Of a stretch of 64,000 bases of DNA, positions 9,465 to 31,261 are shown piece after piece. Position 1 is the stretch's first letter, and the number at the start of each line of letters is the position of its first letter. The stretch spans positions 13,692-77,691 of the forward strand of contig CAYUBQ010000005.1 of assembly GCA_964443135.1 (NCBI GenBank), in the 5' to 3' direction. The notes below the pieces were generated by a model that ran no database searches, had not been told where the DNA came from, and worked only from the letters and a program-made list of their open reading frames with translations. The stretch comes from an uncultured Desulfobacterales bacterium (GTDB lineage Bacteria; Desulfobacterota; DSM-4660; Desulfatiglandales; HGW-15). Position numbers and translations under genes: made by a program.

Positions 9465-10505
9465 TCACGTAAGGTTCGGACCCGGCGTGGCCTGCCTGCG
9501 GCGCTTCCGGGCCAGCTCGCGCTTGTCCGCCACCCGATCGGACTCGTCGACGATCTCCTGCCCGATGAGCTCCTCCAGGATATCCTCCAGCGTGATGACC
9601 CCGGCAAGCCCTCCGTACTCGTCCAGCACGATGAAAAGGTGCTCTCTCCGGTCCAGGAACTCCCTGAGCATCCGGTCCAGCCCGGCGGTTTCGACGACGA
9701 AGTGTATGGGCTGCATCAACTCCGACAGTCGGGTCTCCTGCCCTCCCCGGGAAAGGGCCACGAACATCTCTTTGACCAGCACCAAGCCCACGACGTCCTC
9801 GGGGTTGTCGTCGTACACGGGATAACGGCTGTGCTCCCATTTGTCGTATGCCTGGGTCACCTCGCTCAGGCTCGAGTGCTCGCTGAAGGAAACCACCACG
9901 GTCCGCGGGGTCATCACGTCCTTCACGCGCTTCTTCTGGAGGCTCAGGATGGCCTCGATGGCCTGCCTCTGATCGCTCCCGATCTCCCCCTCCTGAAAGC
10001 AGAGCCGGGCCAGGTGACCCAGCTCTGCGGAGGTGATGGGGCTTTCCCTCCTCCCGGGGGCGATGAGCCGGGTGATGGCGGTGCTCATCCACACCAGGGG
10101 GGCCATCACCCAAACCATCACCCGAAGCGGGAATGCGACCAAGGGGATCATGGGGCCGGCATGGACGACGCCCACCGTCTTGGGAACGATTTCCGACAGG
10201 ACGAGAATGACTGCGGTGAAGACGGCGGAGAAGTGGGGAAGCCAGTGGTGCCCGAAAACCCCGGCCGCTGCGGAGCCTGCAAAGGCCGCACCGACCGTGT
10301 GGGCGATGGTGTTGAGGGTCAAAATCGCGGCGATGGGCCGATCGACGTCCGTCCGAAGCTTCTTGAAGATCCGTCCCGCGGGATGCCCCCCGTCGGCCAG
10401 GGCCTCGATCTGTCCCGGGGTTGCGGAGTAGAGGACGGCTTCGAACAGGGAGCAGACGGCTGAGATGCCGACCGCGAAGGCGACCGCAAGCAGCAGCTCA
10501 CTCAT
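9465..10505 (-). CDS. CNNM/DUF21 membrane protein with CBS pair (TlyC/CorB-like)
   Basis: Start at ATG 10505 (MSELLLAVAF...). It has a four-helix DUF21 N-terminus and a CBS pair (VKDVMTPR..., LDEYGGLAGVITLEDILEELIG). The protein ends right after the CBS pair, without a CorC/HlyC domain. Confidence 0.8.
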   Translation of the reverse strand: MSELLLAVAFAVGISAVCSLFEAVLYSATPGQIEALADGGHPAGRIFKKLRTDVDRPIAAILTLNTIAHTVGAAFAGSAAAGVFGHHWLPHFSAVFTAVILVLSEIVPKTVGVVHAGPMIPLVAFPLRVMVWVMAPLVWMSTAITRLIAPGRRESPITSAELGHLARLCFQEGEIGSDQRQAIEAILSLQKKRVKDVMTPRTVVVSFSEHSSLSEVTQAYDKWEHSRYPVYDDNPEDVVGLVLVKEMFVALSRGGQETRLSELMQPIHFVVETAGLDRMLREFLDRREHLFIVLDEYGGLAGVITLEDILEELIGQEIVDESDRVADKRELARKRRRQATPGPNLT

Positions 10506-28548: not shown

Positions 28549-28764
28549 TCAACCGCCGGCCTGTCCGGTCCTGCCGCCGTTCGAGACGCCGTTCCTGCGG
28601 TTTTCCTTGGTGAGCTCGTGGATGACGCACTGCGGGCGGAACTTGCAGTAGTTGGAGGGATCTGCGCACTCGACGCCGTTGTCCAGGCATTCCCGGCAGT
28701 AGCCGACGAGCATCTTCTGGCAGACGACTCGCGCCTCGCGGTCCGGGTGGTAGCGGCAGTTCAT
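28549..28764 (-). CDS. Small Cys/His-rich protein, B-box-like zinc-finger pattern
   Basis: The 71-aa protein shows C-x2-H-x8-C-x7-C-x2-C-x6-C-x6-C-x5-C-x2-H. GAGGAGGG RBS. It is the last gene of the minus-strand cluster. Confidence 0.6.
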   Translation of the reverse strand: MNCRYHPDREARVVCQKMLVGYCRECLDNGVECADPSNYCKFRPQCVIHELTKENRRNGVSNGGRTGQAGG

Positions 28765-28782
28765 GGTGTGAGCCCTCCTCGC

Positions 28783-29265
28783 TCAAGCCGCGGCCGAAGA
28801 CCGTTCCCTCACCCAGCGCCGCTTTGCCAGGGCGAACAGCAGTGCGGCCGCCAGGAAGAGCATCATGAGGCCGAGATGCGCAATGTCCACGAACATGGTG
28901 AAGGCGGGGGAAAAGGTCACGTCGGGCAGGTTCTTGAGCACCCGGACCACACCGGTCCCCACGATCCCGGCCAGAAGCAGCACCCGGACCCATCCTGCGG
29001 CGGTGAGCGCGTACCGTTTTCGAATGGACAGGGCGTACTCGGCCGCCATGTATCCGAAGAGCGCCAGAACGAGGACGGCGCCCAGGTAGTGGAGGATGTG
29101 CGTGAGGAAGAAGTCGGCCGTCCAGCCCAGGCCCGGAATGTCGGCGATGTAGTAGCGCTTGAAGATGGGCATCTGGCCGAGGCCCGTGAAGGCCATGCCG
29201 GCGAACAGGATCCCGAAGGACCAGCGCATCCACCTTCCTGGAAGAACCGCTTCCCTGACGTTCAT
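28783..29265 (-). CDS. Integral membrane protein (4 TM), possible quinone/heme-b subunit
   Basis: The 160-aa protein has four hydrophobic helices with conserved-looking His residues (THILHYLG, DIAHLG). Its start overlaps the stop of the FeS gene (ATGA at 29262-29265). Confidence 0.6.
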   Translation of the reverse strand: MNVREAVLPGRWMRWSFGILFAGMAFTGLGQMPIFKRYYIADIPGLGWTADFFLTHILHYLGAVLVLALFGYMAAEYALSIRKRYALTAAGWVRVLLLAGIVGTGVVRVLKNLPDVTFSPAFTMFVDIAHLGLMMLFLAAALLFALAKRRWVRERSSAAA

Positions 29266-30248
29266 GACCGGTCCTGCTTTCCTTTGGTGTCCGAGCCGCG
29301 GCCGGACGCCTTGAGAAAGCGGGCCGCCGCCGCCGCAATCCCCGCCACCGGGGCGATCACCATGGCCTTGGCCAGGTTGTCCGCGTGGGCCATGGCGTCC
29401 TCGACCGGCCTGAGGTGGGGACGTCCAGGTCCTTTCTGGATCGCCCGGTTGAGCTCCTCGAAGGGCACCGGGGAGACGTAGACGGTGTTGGTCCCGCCGT
29501 TCTCTTCCTCGCCGTAGATGTACCCGCCGATCTCGCGGGCGATGTCATGGGCCTCCTTCAGGATGGCGTCCCGCGGACCGATCTTCTGGACCTGCTCGGG
29601 GCAGATCTCGATGCAGGCGGGCAGCTCCCCCTTGGCCACCCGGTCGAAGCAGCGGTCGCACTTGTACATGACCCCGTTCCCGGCGAAGCTCGGGAGGAGG
29701 TCCAGGTAGAGGCCCGTCCCGGTCTGGCGCTGGGGGATGTGCCAGGGGCAAACCTTCTTGCACTTGCTCCCGCCCAGGCAGACGTCCGGGTGAATCCGCG
29801 TGATGCCGTTCTCGAGCTTCCGAGCCGCGCCCCACGGGCAGAGGTCCGCGCAGGGCGGGTTCTGGCAGTGCATGCAGCGCCGGGGAACGTTGAGGGTCTT
29901 TTCCTCGCCGTTCACCGTGACCCTCGCCTCCTGGATGAACAGCCAGTTGTAAGGGGTCAGCCGGTCCGTCACGTGCCGCCGCTCGCTCCAGTCCGAAACC
30001 TTGACCCTCGAGGGGTACATTTTGGGGAAGGGCTTTTCCGGCTCGGGGAACTTGGCCTCGTTGGTCCAGTTGCAGGCCTCCACGCAGGCCTCGCACCCGA
30101 TGCAGTTCCGGATGTCGATGAGCGTGGCGAGCTCCTTCGATGAAGCGCCCCGGACGGCGGCGGGCAGGGGAAGACGCGACGCGGTCAGGGCACCCGCTGC
30201 AGCGATGCCGGCTTTGAGGAAATGTCGTCTCGAGATGTCTCGAGGCAT
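29262..30248 (-). CDS. Tat-exported 4x[4Fe-4S] protein of the DmsB/NrfC/FdnH family with C-terminal anchor helix
   Basis: Twin-arginine signal SRRHFLKAGIAAAGAL. Cluster motifs: CIGCEACVEACN, CMHCQNPPCADLCP, CLGGSKCKKVCP, CDRCFDR...ACIEICP. The tail has a hydrophobic helix, AMVIAPVAGIAAAAA. No catalytic molybdopterin subunit is nearby. Confidence 0.85.
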   Translation of the reverse strand: MPRDISRRHFLKAGIAAAGALTASRLPLPAAVRGASSKELATLIDIRNCIGCEACVEACNWTNEAKFPEPEKPFPKMYPSRVKVSDWSERRHVTDRLTPYNWLFIQEARVTVNGEEKTLNVPRRCMHCQNPPCADLCPWGAARKLENGITRIHPDVCLGGSKCKKVCPWHIPQRQTGTGLYLDLLPSFAGNGVMYKCDRCFDRVAKGELPACIEICPEQVQKIGPRDAILKEAHDIAREIGGYIYGEEENGGTNTVYVSPVPFEELNRAIQKGPGRPHLRPVEDAMAHADNLAKAMVIAPVAGIAAAAARFLKASGRGSDTKGKQDRS

Positions 30249-30284
30249 GATGCTCTCCGCGATTCGTGGACGGTCGTTGTCAAA

Positions 30285-30312
30285 TCAGAGCCGCCCCGGC
30301 ACAAAAGGTTTC
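30285..30312 (-). promoter_or_regulatory. ECF (RpoE-like) promoter candidate, GAAACCT-N16-TCTGA
   Basis: Minus strand: -35 GAAACCT (30312-30306), 16-nt spacer, -10 TCTGA (30289-30285). It lies about 35 nt upstream of the FeS gene ATG, in the 103-nt gap after the anti-sigma gene. Confidence 0.45.
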
Positions 30313-30351
30313 AGACGGCCGCAGGCGGGCGGAGAGGATCGGGTCCGCTGC

Positions 30352-30606
30352 TCACGGACGGGAGGAAGCCCCCTGGGCCACGCAGTCGCGGAGGGCGGCC
30401 CTCAGGCGGAGTTTCACGTCGCGGGGGACCGATTCCCGCGGACATCGTTTCATCACGTCCACGGTCTTCTTCAGCGACTCGACGCACGCGCGACACTCCG
30501 GGCAGTCCCGGAGATGCGCCCGGATCTCTTCGCAGGTCGCCTCGTCGAGCTCTCCGTCCAGGAACTCCGAGATGTGTTCCACGTGCTTCATGCAGTCTTC
30601 ATGCAT
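30352..30606 (-). CDS. Zinc-finger (ZAS-type, RsrA-like) anti-sigma factor, soluble
   Basis: The 84-aa protein has HLRDCPEC (H-x3-C-x2-C) plus extra Cys residues and no TM segment. It overlaps the sigma gene by 8 nt. Confidence 0.75.
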   Translation of the reverse strand: MHEDCMKHVEHISEFLDGELDEATCEEIRAHLRDCPECRACVESLKKTVDVMKRCPRESVPRDVKLRLRAALRDCVAQGASSRP

Positions 30607-31210
30607 GGGGAACGTCCTTTCGATAGCGTTCCGTGATCTTTTCCCTCAGGTAGAGACGGGCTCGATGGAGCCTCGTCTTGACCGCCTGGGGGGTGATGTC
30701 CATGATGTCGGCCGTCTCCTCCGTGCTGAATCCCTCCATGTCCCTGAGGTTGAACACCATCCGGTAGATGGGCGGAAGGGAGTGCACCGCCTCCTCGATC
30801 ACCTCTTTCAGCTCGCTTCGGAGGAGGTTCTGCGAGGGGTCCTCGCTCCAGTCCGGGATGTCGTATCTCCCGGCTGCGCCCTCCCCCGGTACCAGGTTCT
30901 CGAGGCTGAGCTCGTAATCGGGCTCGCACTTCTTCTTCCTTCGCTTTCGAAAGCAGGCGTTTGCCGCGATCTTGTAGAGCCAGTTCTTGAGCCGGGTCTC
31001 CTCCCGAAAGTCCTCGAGGTAACGGAAGGCGCTCAGGAGGGTGTCCTGGATGATGTCCTCGGCGTCCTCCCGCTGGCCGCACATACGGAGACCGAAGTTG
31101 TAGAGCCCTTCTTCGTAGAGGTTCACGATCTCTTCCATGGCATCGGGGGAACCCTGCTTGAATCTCTCTACGAGCCGGTGTTCCTCGTCGGTGGTCGCAC
31201 GCTGGTTCAT
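30599..31210 (-). CDS. ECF-type RNA polymerase sigma factor (sigma-70 family, regions 2 and 4)
   Basis: Region 2: AEDIIQDTLLSAFRYLEDFREETRLKNWLYKIAANACF. Region 4: LPPIYRMVFNLRDMEGFSTEETADIMDITPQAVKTRLHRAR. Confidence 0.9.
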   Translation of the reverse strand: MNQRATTDEEHRLVERFKQGSPDAMEEIVNLYEEGLYNFGLRMCGQREDAEDIIQDTLLSAFRYLEDFREETRLKNWLYKIAANACFRKRRKKKCEPDYELSLENLVPGEGAAGRYDIPDWSEDPSQNLLRSELKEVIEEAVHSLPPIYRMVFNLRDMEGFSTEETADIMDITPQAVKTRLHRARLYLREKITERYRKDVPHA

Positions 31211-31214
31211 CTCT

Positions 31215-31243
31215 ATAGATCCGGTTCTCGTCGTTCAGGTTAC
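31215..31243 (-). promoter_or_regulatory. Second ECF-type promoter candidate, GTAACCT-N17-TCTAT, abutting the sigma gene ATG
   Basis: Minus strand: GTAACCT (31243-31237), 17-nt spacer, TCTAT (31219-31215). Only 4 nt separate it from ATG 31210, and no Shine-Dalgarno sequence is visible. Confidence 0.35.
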
Positions 31244-31261
31244 AAGAATTGACGGGTTCGC

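Follow-up and report, generated by a model that had tools for sequence, protein, structure and literature searches.

The Ohc complex has long been listed among the membrane redox complexes of sulfate-reducing bacteria, and no physiological role assigned to it was found in the literature searched. In Desulfovibrio vulgaris, ohcBAC encodes an octaheme cytochrome, an iron-sulfur (FeS) protein and a heme-b membrane protein, with electrons described as passing from OhcA to OhcB to OhcC, and it is controlled by a sigma-54 activator (PMC4641369). The present analysis concerns a locus at which an FeS/membrane protein pair of this type is encoded together with an extracytoplasmic function (ECF) sigma factor, a soluble zinc-binding anti-sigma factor (ZAS) and a small Cys-rich protein. 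The locus lies within a stretch of 64,000 nucleotides (nt; hereafter, the window) from an uncultured Desulfobacterales bacterium (assembly GCA_964443135.1, contig CAYUBQ010000005.1, positions 13,692 to 77,691 of the forward strand), where it occupies window positions 28549-31210 as five co-oriented open reading frames (ORFs) on the minus strand (Table 1). The reading favored here, to which we assign a probability of roughly 0.55, is that the locus encodes a sigma-controlled, inducible electron-transfer unit of Ohc type, with the sensing and the electron sink proposed below. Comparison of sequences across genomes supports the core of this reading well, i.e., that an electron conduit is controlled by an ECF sigma factor with a ZAS partner.

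Relatives of the individual components have been described. In Escherichia coli formate dehydrogenase-N (PDB 1KQF), FdnH/FdnI likewise combine a periplasmic ferredoxin bearing one anchor helix with a four-helix cytochrome b on which it is seated. HybA of hydrogenase-2 and HmcB of the Hmc complex share with the FeS protein of the window a twin-arginine translocation (Tat) signal, a polyferredoxin body and a C-terminal anchor, and they provide its best NCBIfam models. SigR-RsrA of Streptomyces coelicolor resembles the regulatory pair in having a soluble anti-sigma factor of approximately 80-100 amino acids (aa) with the spacing C-x25-H-x3-C-x2-C, and thiol-redox proteins appear in the regulon predicted here. 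The Ohc-type FeS/cytochrome-b core, the octaheme cytochrome family discussed below and ECF/ZAS systems are each of known kinds; ECF/ZAS control of Ohc, a mono-heme cytochrome b and a three-Cys cluster as proposed here were not found described in the literature searched. In several lineages of the Desulfobacterota, the Ohc FeS/cytochrome-b core would be targeted directly, and in a conserved manner, by an ECF sigma factor of the thiol-stress type, and its regulation gives a testable lead to the purpose of a little-studied module.

Identity of the FeS/Membrane Pair

An earlier note, made from the letters of the window, regarded the locus as an orphan combination that it did not recognize. That view has to be abandoned; exact-sequence look-ups of the orthologues in Desulfatibacillum AK-01 (ACL02787-ACL02789) returned the depositor names OhcB1, OhcB2 and OhcA. 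OhcB1 is described there as a TAT-signal iron-sulfur protein, OhcB2 as carrying transmembrane helices, and OhcA, the product of the gene that comes after them, as an octaheme cytochrome. The Desulfatibacillum OhcA scores 627 bits with TIGR04315 (cut-off 375) and so belongs to the tetrathionate-reductase octaheme (Otr) family. With its Tat signal, Fer4 domains and 66% identity to OhcB1, the FeS protein of the window corresponds to OhcB, the periplasmic FeS subunit, while the membrane protein is approximately 53% identical to its Desulfatibacillum orthologue. The FeS/membrane pair is an Ohc-type core, usually encoded alone; the Ohc label reaches it through the Desulfatibacillum names, and the D. 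vulgaris complex was compared by description. The locus shares with the Ohc complex the succession of an FeS protein exported by Tat and a small membrane protein. It differs from that complex in that the operon contains no octaheme cytochrome, the only homologue being encoded on another contig, and in that an ECF sigma/ZAS pair takes the place of the sigma-54 enhancer-binding protein of D. vulgaris and Desulfatibacillum. The Desulfatibacillum genes themselves lie in an apparent sigma-54 operon (L041:4289-10095). It is headed by the gene for a B-box-like homologue of the 71-aa protein, after which come those for an ACR3-like transporter, a coenzyme A (CoA)-disulfide-reductase-like flavoprotein (406 bits with TIGR03385, cut-off 579), OhcB1, OhcB2 and OhcA; a PAS-containing sigma-54 enhancer-binding protein is encoded divergently.

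Linkage of the Sigma Factor to the Pair

The 160-aa membrane protein belongs to a family with 2029 database matches, nearly all from Desulfobacterota metagenomes or metagenome-assembled genomes (MAGs). Across a sample of 401 genomes of the phylum Desulfobacterota, a full-length homologue was present in 28, and the FeS gene was directly upstream of the membrane gene and in the same orientation at every locus (30/30). In three loci (L050, L052, L053; genomes G146, G391, G293), the two are fused into a single ORF of 482-492 aa. Upstream of these fused genes, a palindrome-like conserved element (CATACTGTAAAAGTATGC) and a TATAAAT-type box were seen; the same three genomes additionally carry an unfused second FeS/membrane paralogue pair (L154-L156, family f44). 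This second pair was considered as a D. vulgaris-type ohcBAC and rejected, being another FeS/membrane paralogue pair without a cytochrome.

The sigma/anti-sigma genes adjoin the FeS/membrane pair in 13 loci, and they do so in two gene orders. In the order sigma-ZAS-FeS-membrane(-small), found at L005, L065, L064, L066, L071, L072 and L074, the sigma and ZAS genes are directly upstream of the pair at five loci (L005, L065, L071, L072, L074), and DsrE/YeeE/CCG genes are inserted between them and the pair at L064 and L066. In the order FeS-membrane-sigma-ZAS (L043/L086, L047, L076, L077, L078), the regulatory genes are directly downstream. MAGs of the Desulfosarcinaceae, Desulfatirhabdiaceae and Desulfohalobiaceae are included among the sigma-linked loci. 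Since two distinct gene orders are represented, selection for the linkage of sigma and FeS genes may be argued, and the association as read from these genomes is not due to chance. Absence of such linkage from orthologous sigma/anti-sigma pairs elsewhere, which the earlier note named as grounds for refuting its reading, was not encountered within the Desulfobacterota. Relatives of the sigma-ZAS pair in Acidobacteriota, Chloroflexota and other phyla (35-49% identity) never adjoin FeS or membrane genes.

One genome, G288, has the cluster split, with the FeS/membrane pair on contig C218 and the genes for sigma factor, ZAS and small protein on C67. Both break points carry a similar repeat, approximately 120 nt long (...CCCTCGAAGGGGGAGGG...GTGATTTTCATGTTTCGTTGTGCCC...GGGCATGA...), L069:8360-8510 and L040 at approximately 9500-9640, 5' of the FeS gene, which suggests a repeat-mediated rearrangement.

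Conserved Promoter Motifs

Typical ECF promoters carry AAC at -35 and a TCT-type element at -10. A motif of this form, with the consensus TG(A/T)AACCTTTT-N11-G(G/T)CTCT, i.e., TG(A/T)AACC(T/A)TTT-N11-G(G/T)CTCT, was identified 57-115 nt 5' of the FeS gene at 16 loci, which vary greatly in G+C content. It is found also where no sigma gene was seen nearby (L001, L004, L070, L073) and in L040, the FeS locus of the split cluster of G288, in which genome the sigma orthologue on the other contig is 62% identical. Conversely, three genomes with no motif at the FeS gene (G264, G040, G318) had no sigma orthologue at E 1e-20. The strict form of the motif had eight matches genome-wide against approximately 2.8 for permuted motif controls; with an enrichment this modest in a single genome, the case rests on cross-species conservation. 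Together with the linkage in two orders, the conserved ECF-type promoter supports the proposition of the earlier note that the FeS/membrane genes are placed under the ECF sigma factor, as far as sequence comparison can indicate.

A second motif, TGTAACC-N16-GATCT, ends 6 nt before the ATG of the sigma gene and is one of the eight strict matches. It was seen also in L005, L074 and L064 and was not evident in the other sigma-linked loci; autoregulation from the sigma gene's own promoter would therefore be lineage-specific. In the order FeS-membrane-sigma-ZAS, autoregulation would be supplied by the FeS promoter.

Lineages without the ECF sigma factor appear from their upstream sequences to use other signals. 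Canonical sigma-54 promoters (GGCAC-N5-TTGC) precede the FeS gene in Desulfococcus (L038) and at the majority of the family f21 loci (L054-L063), indicating that the same module is wired to different regulators according to lineage. Family f21 includes Desulfarculus baarsii, whose locus (L061) shows no sigma-54 promoter; repeated GTTAAC-type sites are also present upstream of the pair in this family.

The Predicted Regulon

A position weight matrix was built from the 16 FeS-promoter sites and used to scan the genome; the sites it returns are predictions. The first-ranked site is that of the window's own FeS promoter, a circular result given its presence in the training set. The second (G000:C22:37906-37935 (+), outside the window, CTGTAACCTTTCCGGGGTGCCCGGCTCTAT) is approximately 170 nt 5' of a gene of the IscA/HesB family (NF038090, 100.9 bits against 85) that has a TGA in frame (GG-U-AGP), and similar sites (TGTCACCTTTT...CTCTAT or GATCTAT) are found at the same place by the HesB orthologues of G140 (L174) and G314 (L172). 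The third (G000:C22:58134-58163 (+), likewise outside the window) is approximately 250 nt 5' of a gene for a ResA/TlpA-like thiol:disulfide oxidoreductase, a lipoprotein with a WCSPC motif, and the TlpA-like orthologue of G140 (L170) is preceded by TGGAACCTTTT...GTCTCT at -87. As a prediction only, this set of genes fits a thiol or Fe-S stress regulon.

Genes for sulfur handling and thiol redox are also found beside the module itself: DsrE, Sulf_transp (YeeE-type) and CCG at L064; DsrE at L066; TusA, DsrE and rhodanese at L004; TusA at L070; rhodanese at L073; and the CoA-disulfide-reductase-like gene at L041. With the Ohc core as a conserved target of the sigma factor, and genes for an IscA/HesB selenoprotein and a periplasmic thioredoxin-like protein as further predicted targets, a function of the module in stress or detoxification is suggested.

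The Sigma Factor and Its Zinc Anti-Sigma Factor

The sigma factor consists of the sigma-2 and sigma-4 domains only (Sigma70_r2, 50.9 bits; Sigma70_r4_2, 62.5 bits) and, at 100.3 bits against the TIGR02937 cut-off of 42.9, is of the ECF (group IV) type. None of the NCBIfam equivalogs reached its cut-off with this protein, the best being PRK11922 (152 against 204). Its aligned orthologues (alignment A3) are 38-96% identical.

The anti-sigma factor matches zf-HC2 (44.3 bits, cut-off 22.2), has no hydrophobic segment and is encoded directly after the sigma gene; it carries H31-x3-C35-x2-C38 within the anti-sigma domain, as ZAS proteins do. Among nine orthologues, C5, H31, C35, C38 and C41 are invariant. 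The spacing C5-x25-H31-x3-C35-x2-C38 is that of the zinc ligands of RsrA (C11/H37/C41/C44 in RsrA numbering), so that the fourth ligand would be the N-terminal Cys located 26 residues before the His, a RsrA-like position; C41 is additional. The earlier description of this protein as a soluble anti-sigma factor with the Cys-His-Cys-Cys spacing of RsrA is borne out. The RsrA model itself, TIGR03988 (antisig_RsrA), is its best NCBIfam match, yet because the score of 46.9 bits is below the cut-off of 62.5, the protein falls outside the RsrA equivalog. Further differences from SigR-RsrA are that the host is not an actinobacterium and offers no mycothiol context; that the promoter is of the AAC...TCT type and not the GGAAT-N18-GTT of SigR; and that a periplasmic electron-transfer module takes the place of genes for thioredoxin or mycothiol as the main target.

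Sensing of the thiol-redox state by this anti-sigma factor may reasonably be hypothesized. A competing explanation, which we hold to be somewhat unlikely, is that the sigma/anti-sigma pair controls the operon with a zinc site that is structural, as in ChrR and RslA, the cue being a metal, damage to the envelope or to Fe-S clusters, or a partner protein. Many anti-sigma factors of the HxxxCxxC type (the ZAS family) are not redox-sensitive, and this generality, the score below the RsrA cut-off, and the occurrence in Acidobacteriota and Chloroflexota of relatives without the module would all agree with a structural site. It is harder to reconcile with a first ligand that is an invariant Cys at the position of RsrA and not the His of ChrR, with the extra invariant C41 that extends the motif to H-x3-C-x2-C-x2-C, and with the thiol- and sulfur-related character of both the predicted regulon and the neighboring genes.

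The FeS Protein and the Membrane Protein

The FeS protein has matches to TAT_signal, Fer4_7 and Fer4_11 and a hydrophobic C-terminal helix. Its scores with the models of HmcB (130 bits, cut-off 420) and HybA (123 bits, cut-off 263) are both below the cut-offs, and its closest solved structure is that of E. coli FdnH (1kqf_B, E 3e-20). The arrangement differs from that of HybA and HmcB in that the membrane partner is of the four-helix cytochrome-b type and not of the NrfD/HybB type, with no hydrogenase or Hmc genes adjacent. It differs from FdnH/FdnI in that there is no catalytic alpha subunit, the FeS protein bears a Tat signal of its own, the third Cys motif is one Cys short, and the 160-aa cytochrome b is without the histidines of the cytoplasmic-side heme.

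A twin-arginine signal is present in 30 of 30 orthologues of the FeS protein, and all 15 of its Cys residues are invariant. In each of the 30, the third Cys motif reads C-L-G-G-x-K-C-x3-CP (C-x5-C-x3-CP), and Gly160 aligns with the second Cys of the CIGCGYC of FdnH. The protein has three complete Cys motifs and one of three Cys, where the four-cluster proteins FdnH and DmsB have 16 ligands. The earlier assignment to a four-cluster DmsB/FdnH type was correct as to export by Tat, relationship to FdnH and the anchor helix; it requires amendment as to the ligands, which number 15 and not 16 and leave one cluster with three. By analogy with NarH and with the C102 variants of DmsB, this cluster is probably a [3Fe-4S] cluster at the membrane-proximal position.

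The 160-aa membrane protein had no match in Pfam, PF01292 included, at E values up to 0.1, and no significant match in NCBIfam. Longer homologues of 223 and 227 aa, encoded next to an FeS paralogue in many genomes, are members of PF01292 (FdnI/HyaC; E 2e-20 and 7e-21), and comparison by hhalign of the 160-aa family (alignment A1) with the 223-aa member gave a probability of 99.3% and E 6.8e-21 over all four helices. An AlphaFold2 model of the 160-aa protein is a confident bundle of four long helices (pLDDT 81, the predicted local distance difference test score). Both H59, in transmembrane helix 2 (TM2), and H130, at the start of TM4, match histidines of the long form and are invariant in the 160-aa family. 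At the position of the TM1 histidine, R-L-E-H-W of the long form is replaced by R-W-M-R-W, with Arg in place of His, and the second histidine of TM4 is missing; of the four histidines that ligate two hemes in PF01292 proteins, two are kept. In the published FdnI structure, the two retained positions reportedly ligate the periplasmic-side heme, and the two lost positions the cytoplasmic-side heme, which carries the menaquinone site. Because H59 and H130 are retained and the two cytoplasmic-side positions lost, the 160-aa protein is predicted from its sequence to be a mono-heme cytochrome b, with any quinone chemistry on the periplasmic side. A cytochrome b of FdnI type pared down in this way, with only the outer heme left, would be relevant to quinol-linked periplasmic electron transfer without charge separation.

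The relationship of the pair to FdnH and FdnI/HyaC subunits, their closest solved relatives, and the lack of an adjacent catalytic subunit would also be expected if the pair were the remnant of a decayed formate dehydrogenase-N or hydrogenase operon that came to lie beside the sigma gene by coincidence. This explanation is very improbable, being contradicted by the conservation of the pair, its intact signals, and its conserved linkage and promoter: the FeS protein has its own twin-arginine signal and 15 invariant Cys throughout its orthologues, the membrane family is large (see above), the two genes are always adjacent, sometimes fused, and never beside a molybdopterin gene in the Pfam-annotated loci, and both linkage and promoter are conserved across families.

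The Octaheme Cytochrome as Candidate Partner

An octaheme cytochrome is encoded near the pair in only 4 of approximately 30 loci, three of these cytochromes being of the Otr family (L039, L041, L042); in G318, an Otr-family octaheme cytochrome is within approximately 1.7 kb downstream of the pair. Neither the window locus nor approximately 26 of the 30 loci have one, unlike an Ohc operon, in which OhcA is encoded with the other two subunits. The window genome does encode an Otr-family protein elsewhere, on contig C65 (TIGR04315, 632 bits); it is 61% identical and has a C-terminal anchor. Otr proteins scoring over the cut-off were found in 17 of the 28 genomes with the pair compared with 44 of the 373 without it, counts that ignore kinship. 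In the other 11 genomes with the pair, no Otr exceeded the cut-off, and Otr therefore cannot be the sole partner; it is a plausible, not an obligatory, partner of the FeS/membrane pair.

The Otr gene of the window genome (G000:C65:14902-16554 (+), outside the window) contains one in-frame TGA. In an alignment with Shewanella Otr (1sp3_A), this codon stands opposite Cys64, eight residues beyond the position of Lys56, and 13 nt 3' of it begins a hairpin, GCAACGA-GGC-TCGTTGC. Approximately half of the Otr matches over the cut-off in the genome sample carry one TGA, and this recurrence suggests a widespread selenocysteine form of Otr; no paper describing a selenocysteine Otr was found in the literature searched.

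Proposed Mechanism and Direction of Electron Flow

In the mechanism proposed (the inducible, sigma-controlled unit favored above), the soluble zinc anti-sigma factor, with its RsrA-type Cys-His-Cys-Cys ligands, would hold the ECF sigma factor until thiol-oxidizing stress, in the form of disulfide, reactive sulfur or an oxidant, led to release of the zinc and freed the sigma factor. The free sigma factor would then transcribe the operon for the FeS, membrane and 71-aa proteins from the conserved promoter and, in this lineage, its own operon as well; promoter and linkage are shown by comparative evidence, from which we infer the transcription itself. Exported by Tat and anchored by its C-terminal helix, the FeS protein would dock on the 160-aa cytochrome b, with the three-Cys cluster, probably [3Fe-4S], sitting next to the heme, to give a FdnH/FdnI-like (Ohc-type) module that would link the menaquinone pool to periplasmic redox partners. 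Electrons would most probably leave menaquinol for acceptors in the periplasm, of which the membrane-anchored Otr encoded on C65 is the foremost candidate, and the module would serve as a non-electrogenic reductive sink for oxidized sulfur or nitrogen species under stress. The 71-aa B-box-like protein, a small thiol/zinc protein of wide distribution, would have been taken up into the operon.

In the review literature, reportedly in Pereira et al. 2011, the usual depiction of the Ohc and Nhc complexes has them conveying electrons from periplasmic donors to menaquinone. The same architecture under the same sigma control could indeed operate in this opposite direction, from periplasmic donors (hydrogenase or formate dehydrogenase, by way of c-type cytochromes) to the menaquinone pool, as part of energy metabolism. 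Sequence does not fix the direction of electrons, and the order OhcA to OhcB to OhcC described for the Ohc complex agrees with such an input (PMC4641369). Control by a stress sigma factor of the ZAS type, predicted co-regulation with IscA/HesB and ResA/TlpA-like proteins, and loss of the cytoplasmic-side heme and quinone site that make FdnI electrogenic speak otherwise, so that an inducible sink that does not conserve energy fits better than a core respiratory input, and flow toward menaquinone is judged unlikely.

Several points weigh against the favored reading, with its thiol sensing and reductive sink. The direction of the electrons, as just stated, is not given by the sequence. Binding of heme by the 160-aa protein is suggested by its retained histidines; the top Foldseek match of its model, the cytochrome b of E. 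coli Hyd-1 (6g94), has an E value of only 0.9, and PDB sequences searched with a profile of the membrane family gave no matches. For the ZAS, redox sensitivity is suggested by ligand spacing, and the score with the RsrA model is below its cut-off. To these are added the modest enrichment of the promoter motif within the single genome, the 11 pair-bearing genomes with no Otr over the cut-off, and the failure to find an ECF motif 5' of the Otr gene on C65.

A more specific version of the mechanism is speculative and, in our estimation, somewhat doubtful: the thiol switch would command a quinol-fed periplasmic sink in which a mono-heme OhcBC passes electrons to a selenocysteine Otr, detoxifying tetrathionate, polysulfide and other oxidants upon oxidation of cytoplasmic thiols. 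If true, the Ohc complex would have its first physiological role, and the outputs of ZAS-type sigma systems would include a novel type.

The Small Cys-Rich Protein

The 71-aa protein has eight invariant ligand positions, C3-x2-H6-x8-C15-x7-C23-x2-C26-x6-C33-x6-C40-x5-C46, of which the first five have the spacing of a B-box-2. It had no significant match in Pfam or NCBIfam; with zf-B_box (PF00643), 3 of 10 family members matched (best E 0.049), the window protein not among them. The top Foldseek matches of its model were B-box and RING domains with E values of 1.6-6, and the Desulfatibacillum homologue is named 'B box-type domain-containing protein' in UniRef. Of the B-box Cys/His spacing claimed for this protein in the earlier note, the B-box-2-like arrangement of the first five ligands can be retained; membership of the family, given 3 of 10 members matching zf-B_box and Foldseek E values above 1, cannot. 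'B-box-like' is a fair description and not a demonstrated membership.

The same note had counted the 71-aa protein as part of the module, for which it proves too widespread: its family occurs in 165 of the 401 sampled genomes against 28 for the FeS/membrane pair. In G288, the 71-aa homologue follows the sigma and ZAS genes, with the FeS and membrane genes elsewhere. Thioredoxin-reductase-type neighbors are found in two genomes without the pair: in G314 (L164:3820-5003), the 71-aa homologue is directly 3' of a thioredoxin reductase gene (TIGR01292, 388 bits against 343), and in G260 (L166:2080-5141), a thioredoxin-reductase-like gene is two genes upstream of it. No convincing ECF site was found 5' of 71-aa homologues in other contexts, only weak matches to a loose pattern. 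We read it as a general small thiol/zinc protein that the operon has acquired, not as a dedicated subunit. Selenocysteine variants of the protein were considered and rejected, the TGA codons that had been flagged being terminal stop codons and all core Cys being Cys.

Layout of the Locus

All five minus-strand ORFs listed in the earlier note were confirmed at the coordinates given in Table 1, as was its remark that no molybdopterin or hydrogenase subunit accompanies the FeS protein, which agrees with the Pfam annotation of the locus and with the location of the genome's molybdopterin genes, none of the ten being on the contig of the window. A scan of the locus for sigma-70 promoters and terminators gave nothing informative.

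Table 1. Genes and promoter motifs of the five-gene locus, in window positions.
Feature	Position	Strand	Basis
ECF (group IV) sigma factor, 203 aa	30599-31210	-	Pfam Sigma70_r2 and Sigma70_r4_2, TIGR02937
Soluble zinc-binding anti-sigma factor (ZAS), 84 aa	30352-30606	-	zf-HC2, 44.3 bits
Tat-exported FdnH/HybA-type FeS protein (OhcB-type) with C-terminal anchor helix, 328 aa	29262-30248	-	TAT_signal, Fer4_7, Fer4_11
Four-helix membrane protein, predicted shortened FdnI/HyaC-type cytochrome b, 160 aa	28783-29265	-	hhalign, AlphaFold2
Cytoplasmic Cys/His-rich B-box-like small protein, 71 aa	28549-28764	-	Eight invariant ligand positions
ECF-type promoter-like motif, TGTAACC-N16-GATCT, 5' of sigma gene	31217-31244	-	Read from sequence
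ECF-type promoter motif, TGAAACCTTTTGTGCCGGGGCGGCTCT, in 103-nt gap 5' of FeS gene	30287-30313	-	Read from sequence

There is an 8-nt overlap between the genes for the sigma factor and the ZAS, the stop codon of the FeS gene overlaps the start of the membrane gene as ATGA, and the gene for the 71-aa protein starts 18 nt 3' of the membrane gene. The five genes are flanked by a gene for a CoA-transferase/GNAT fusion and by a convergent gene for an enoyl-CoA hydratase, both unrelated to the locus.

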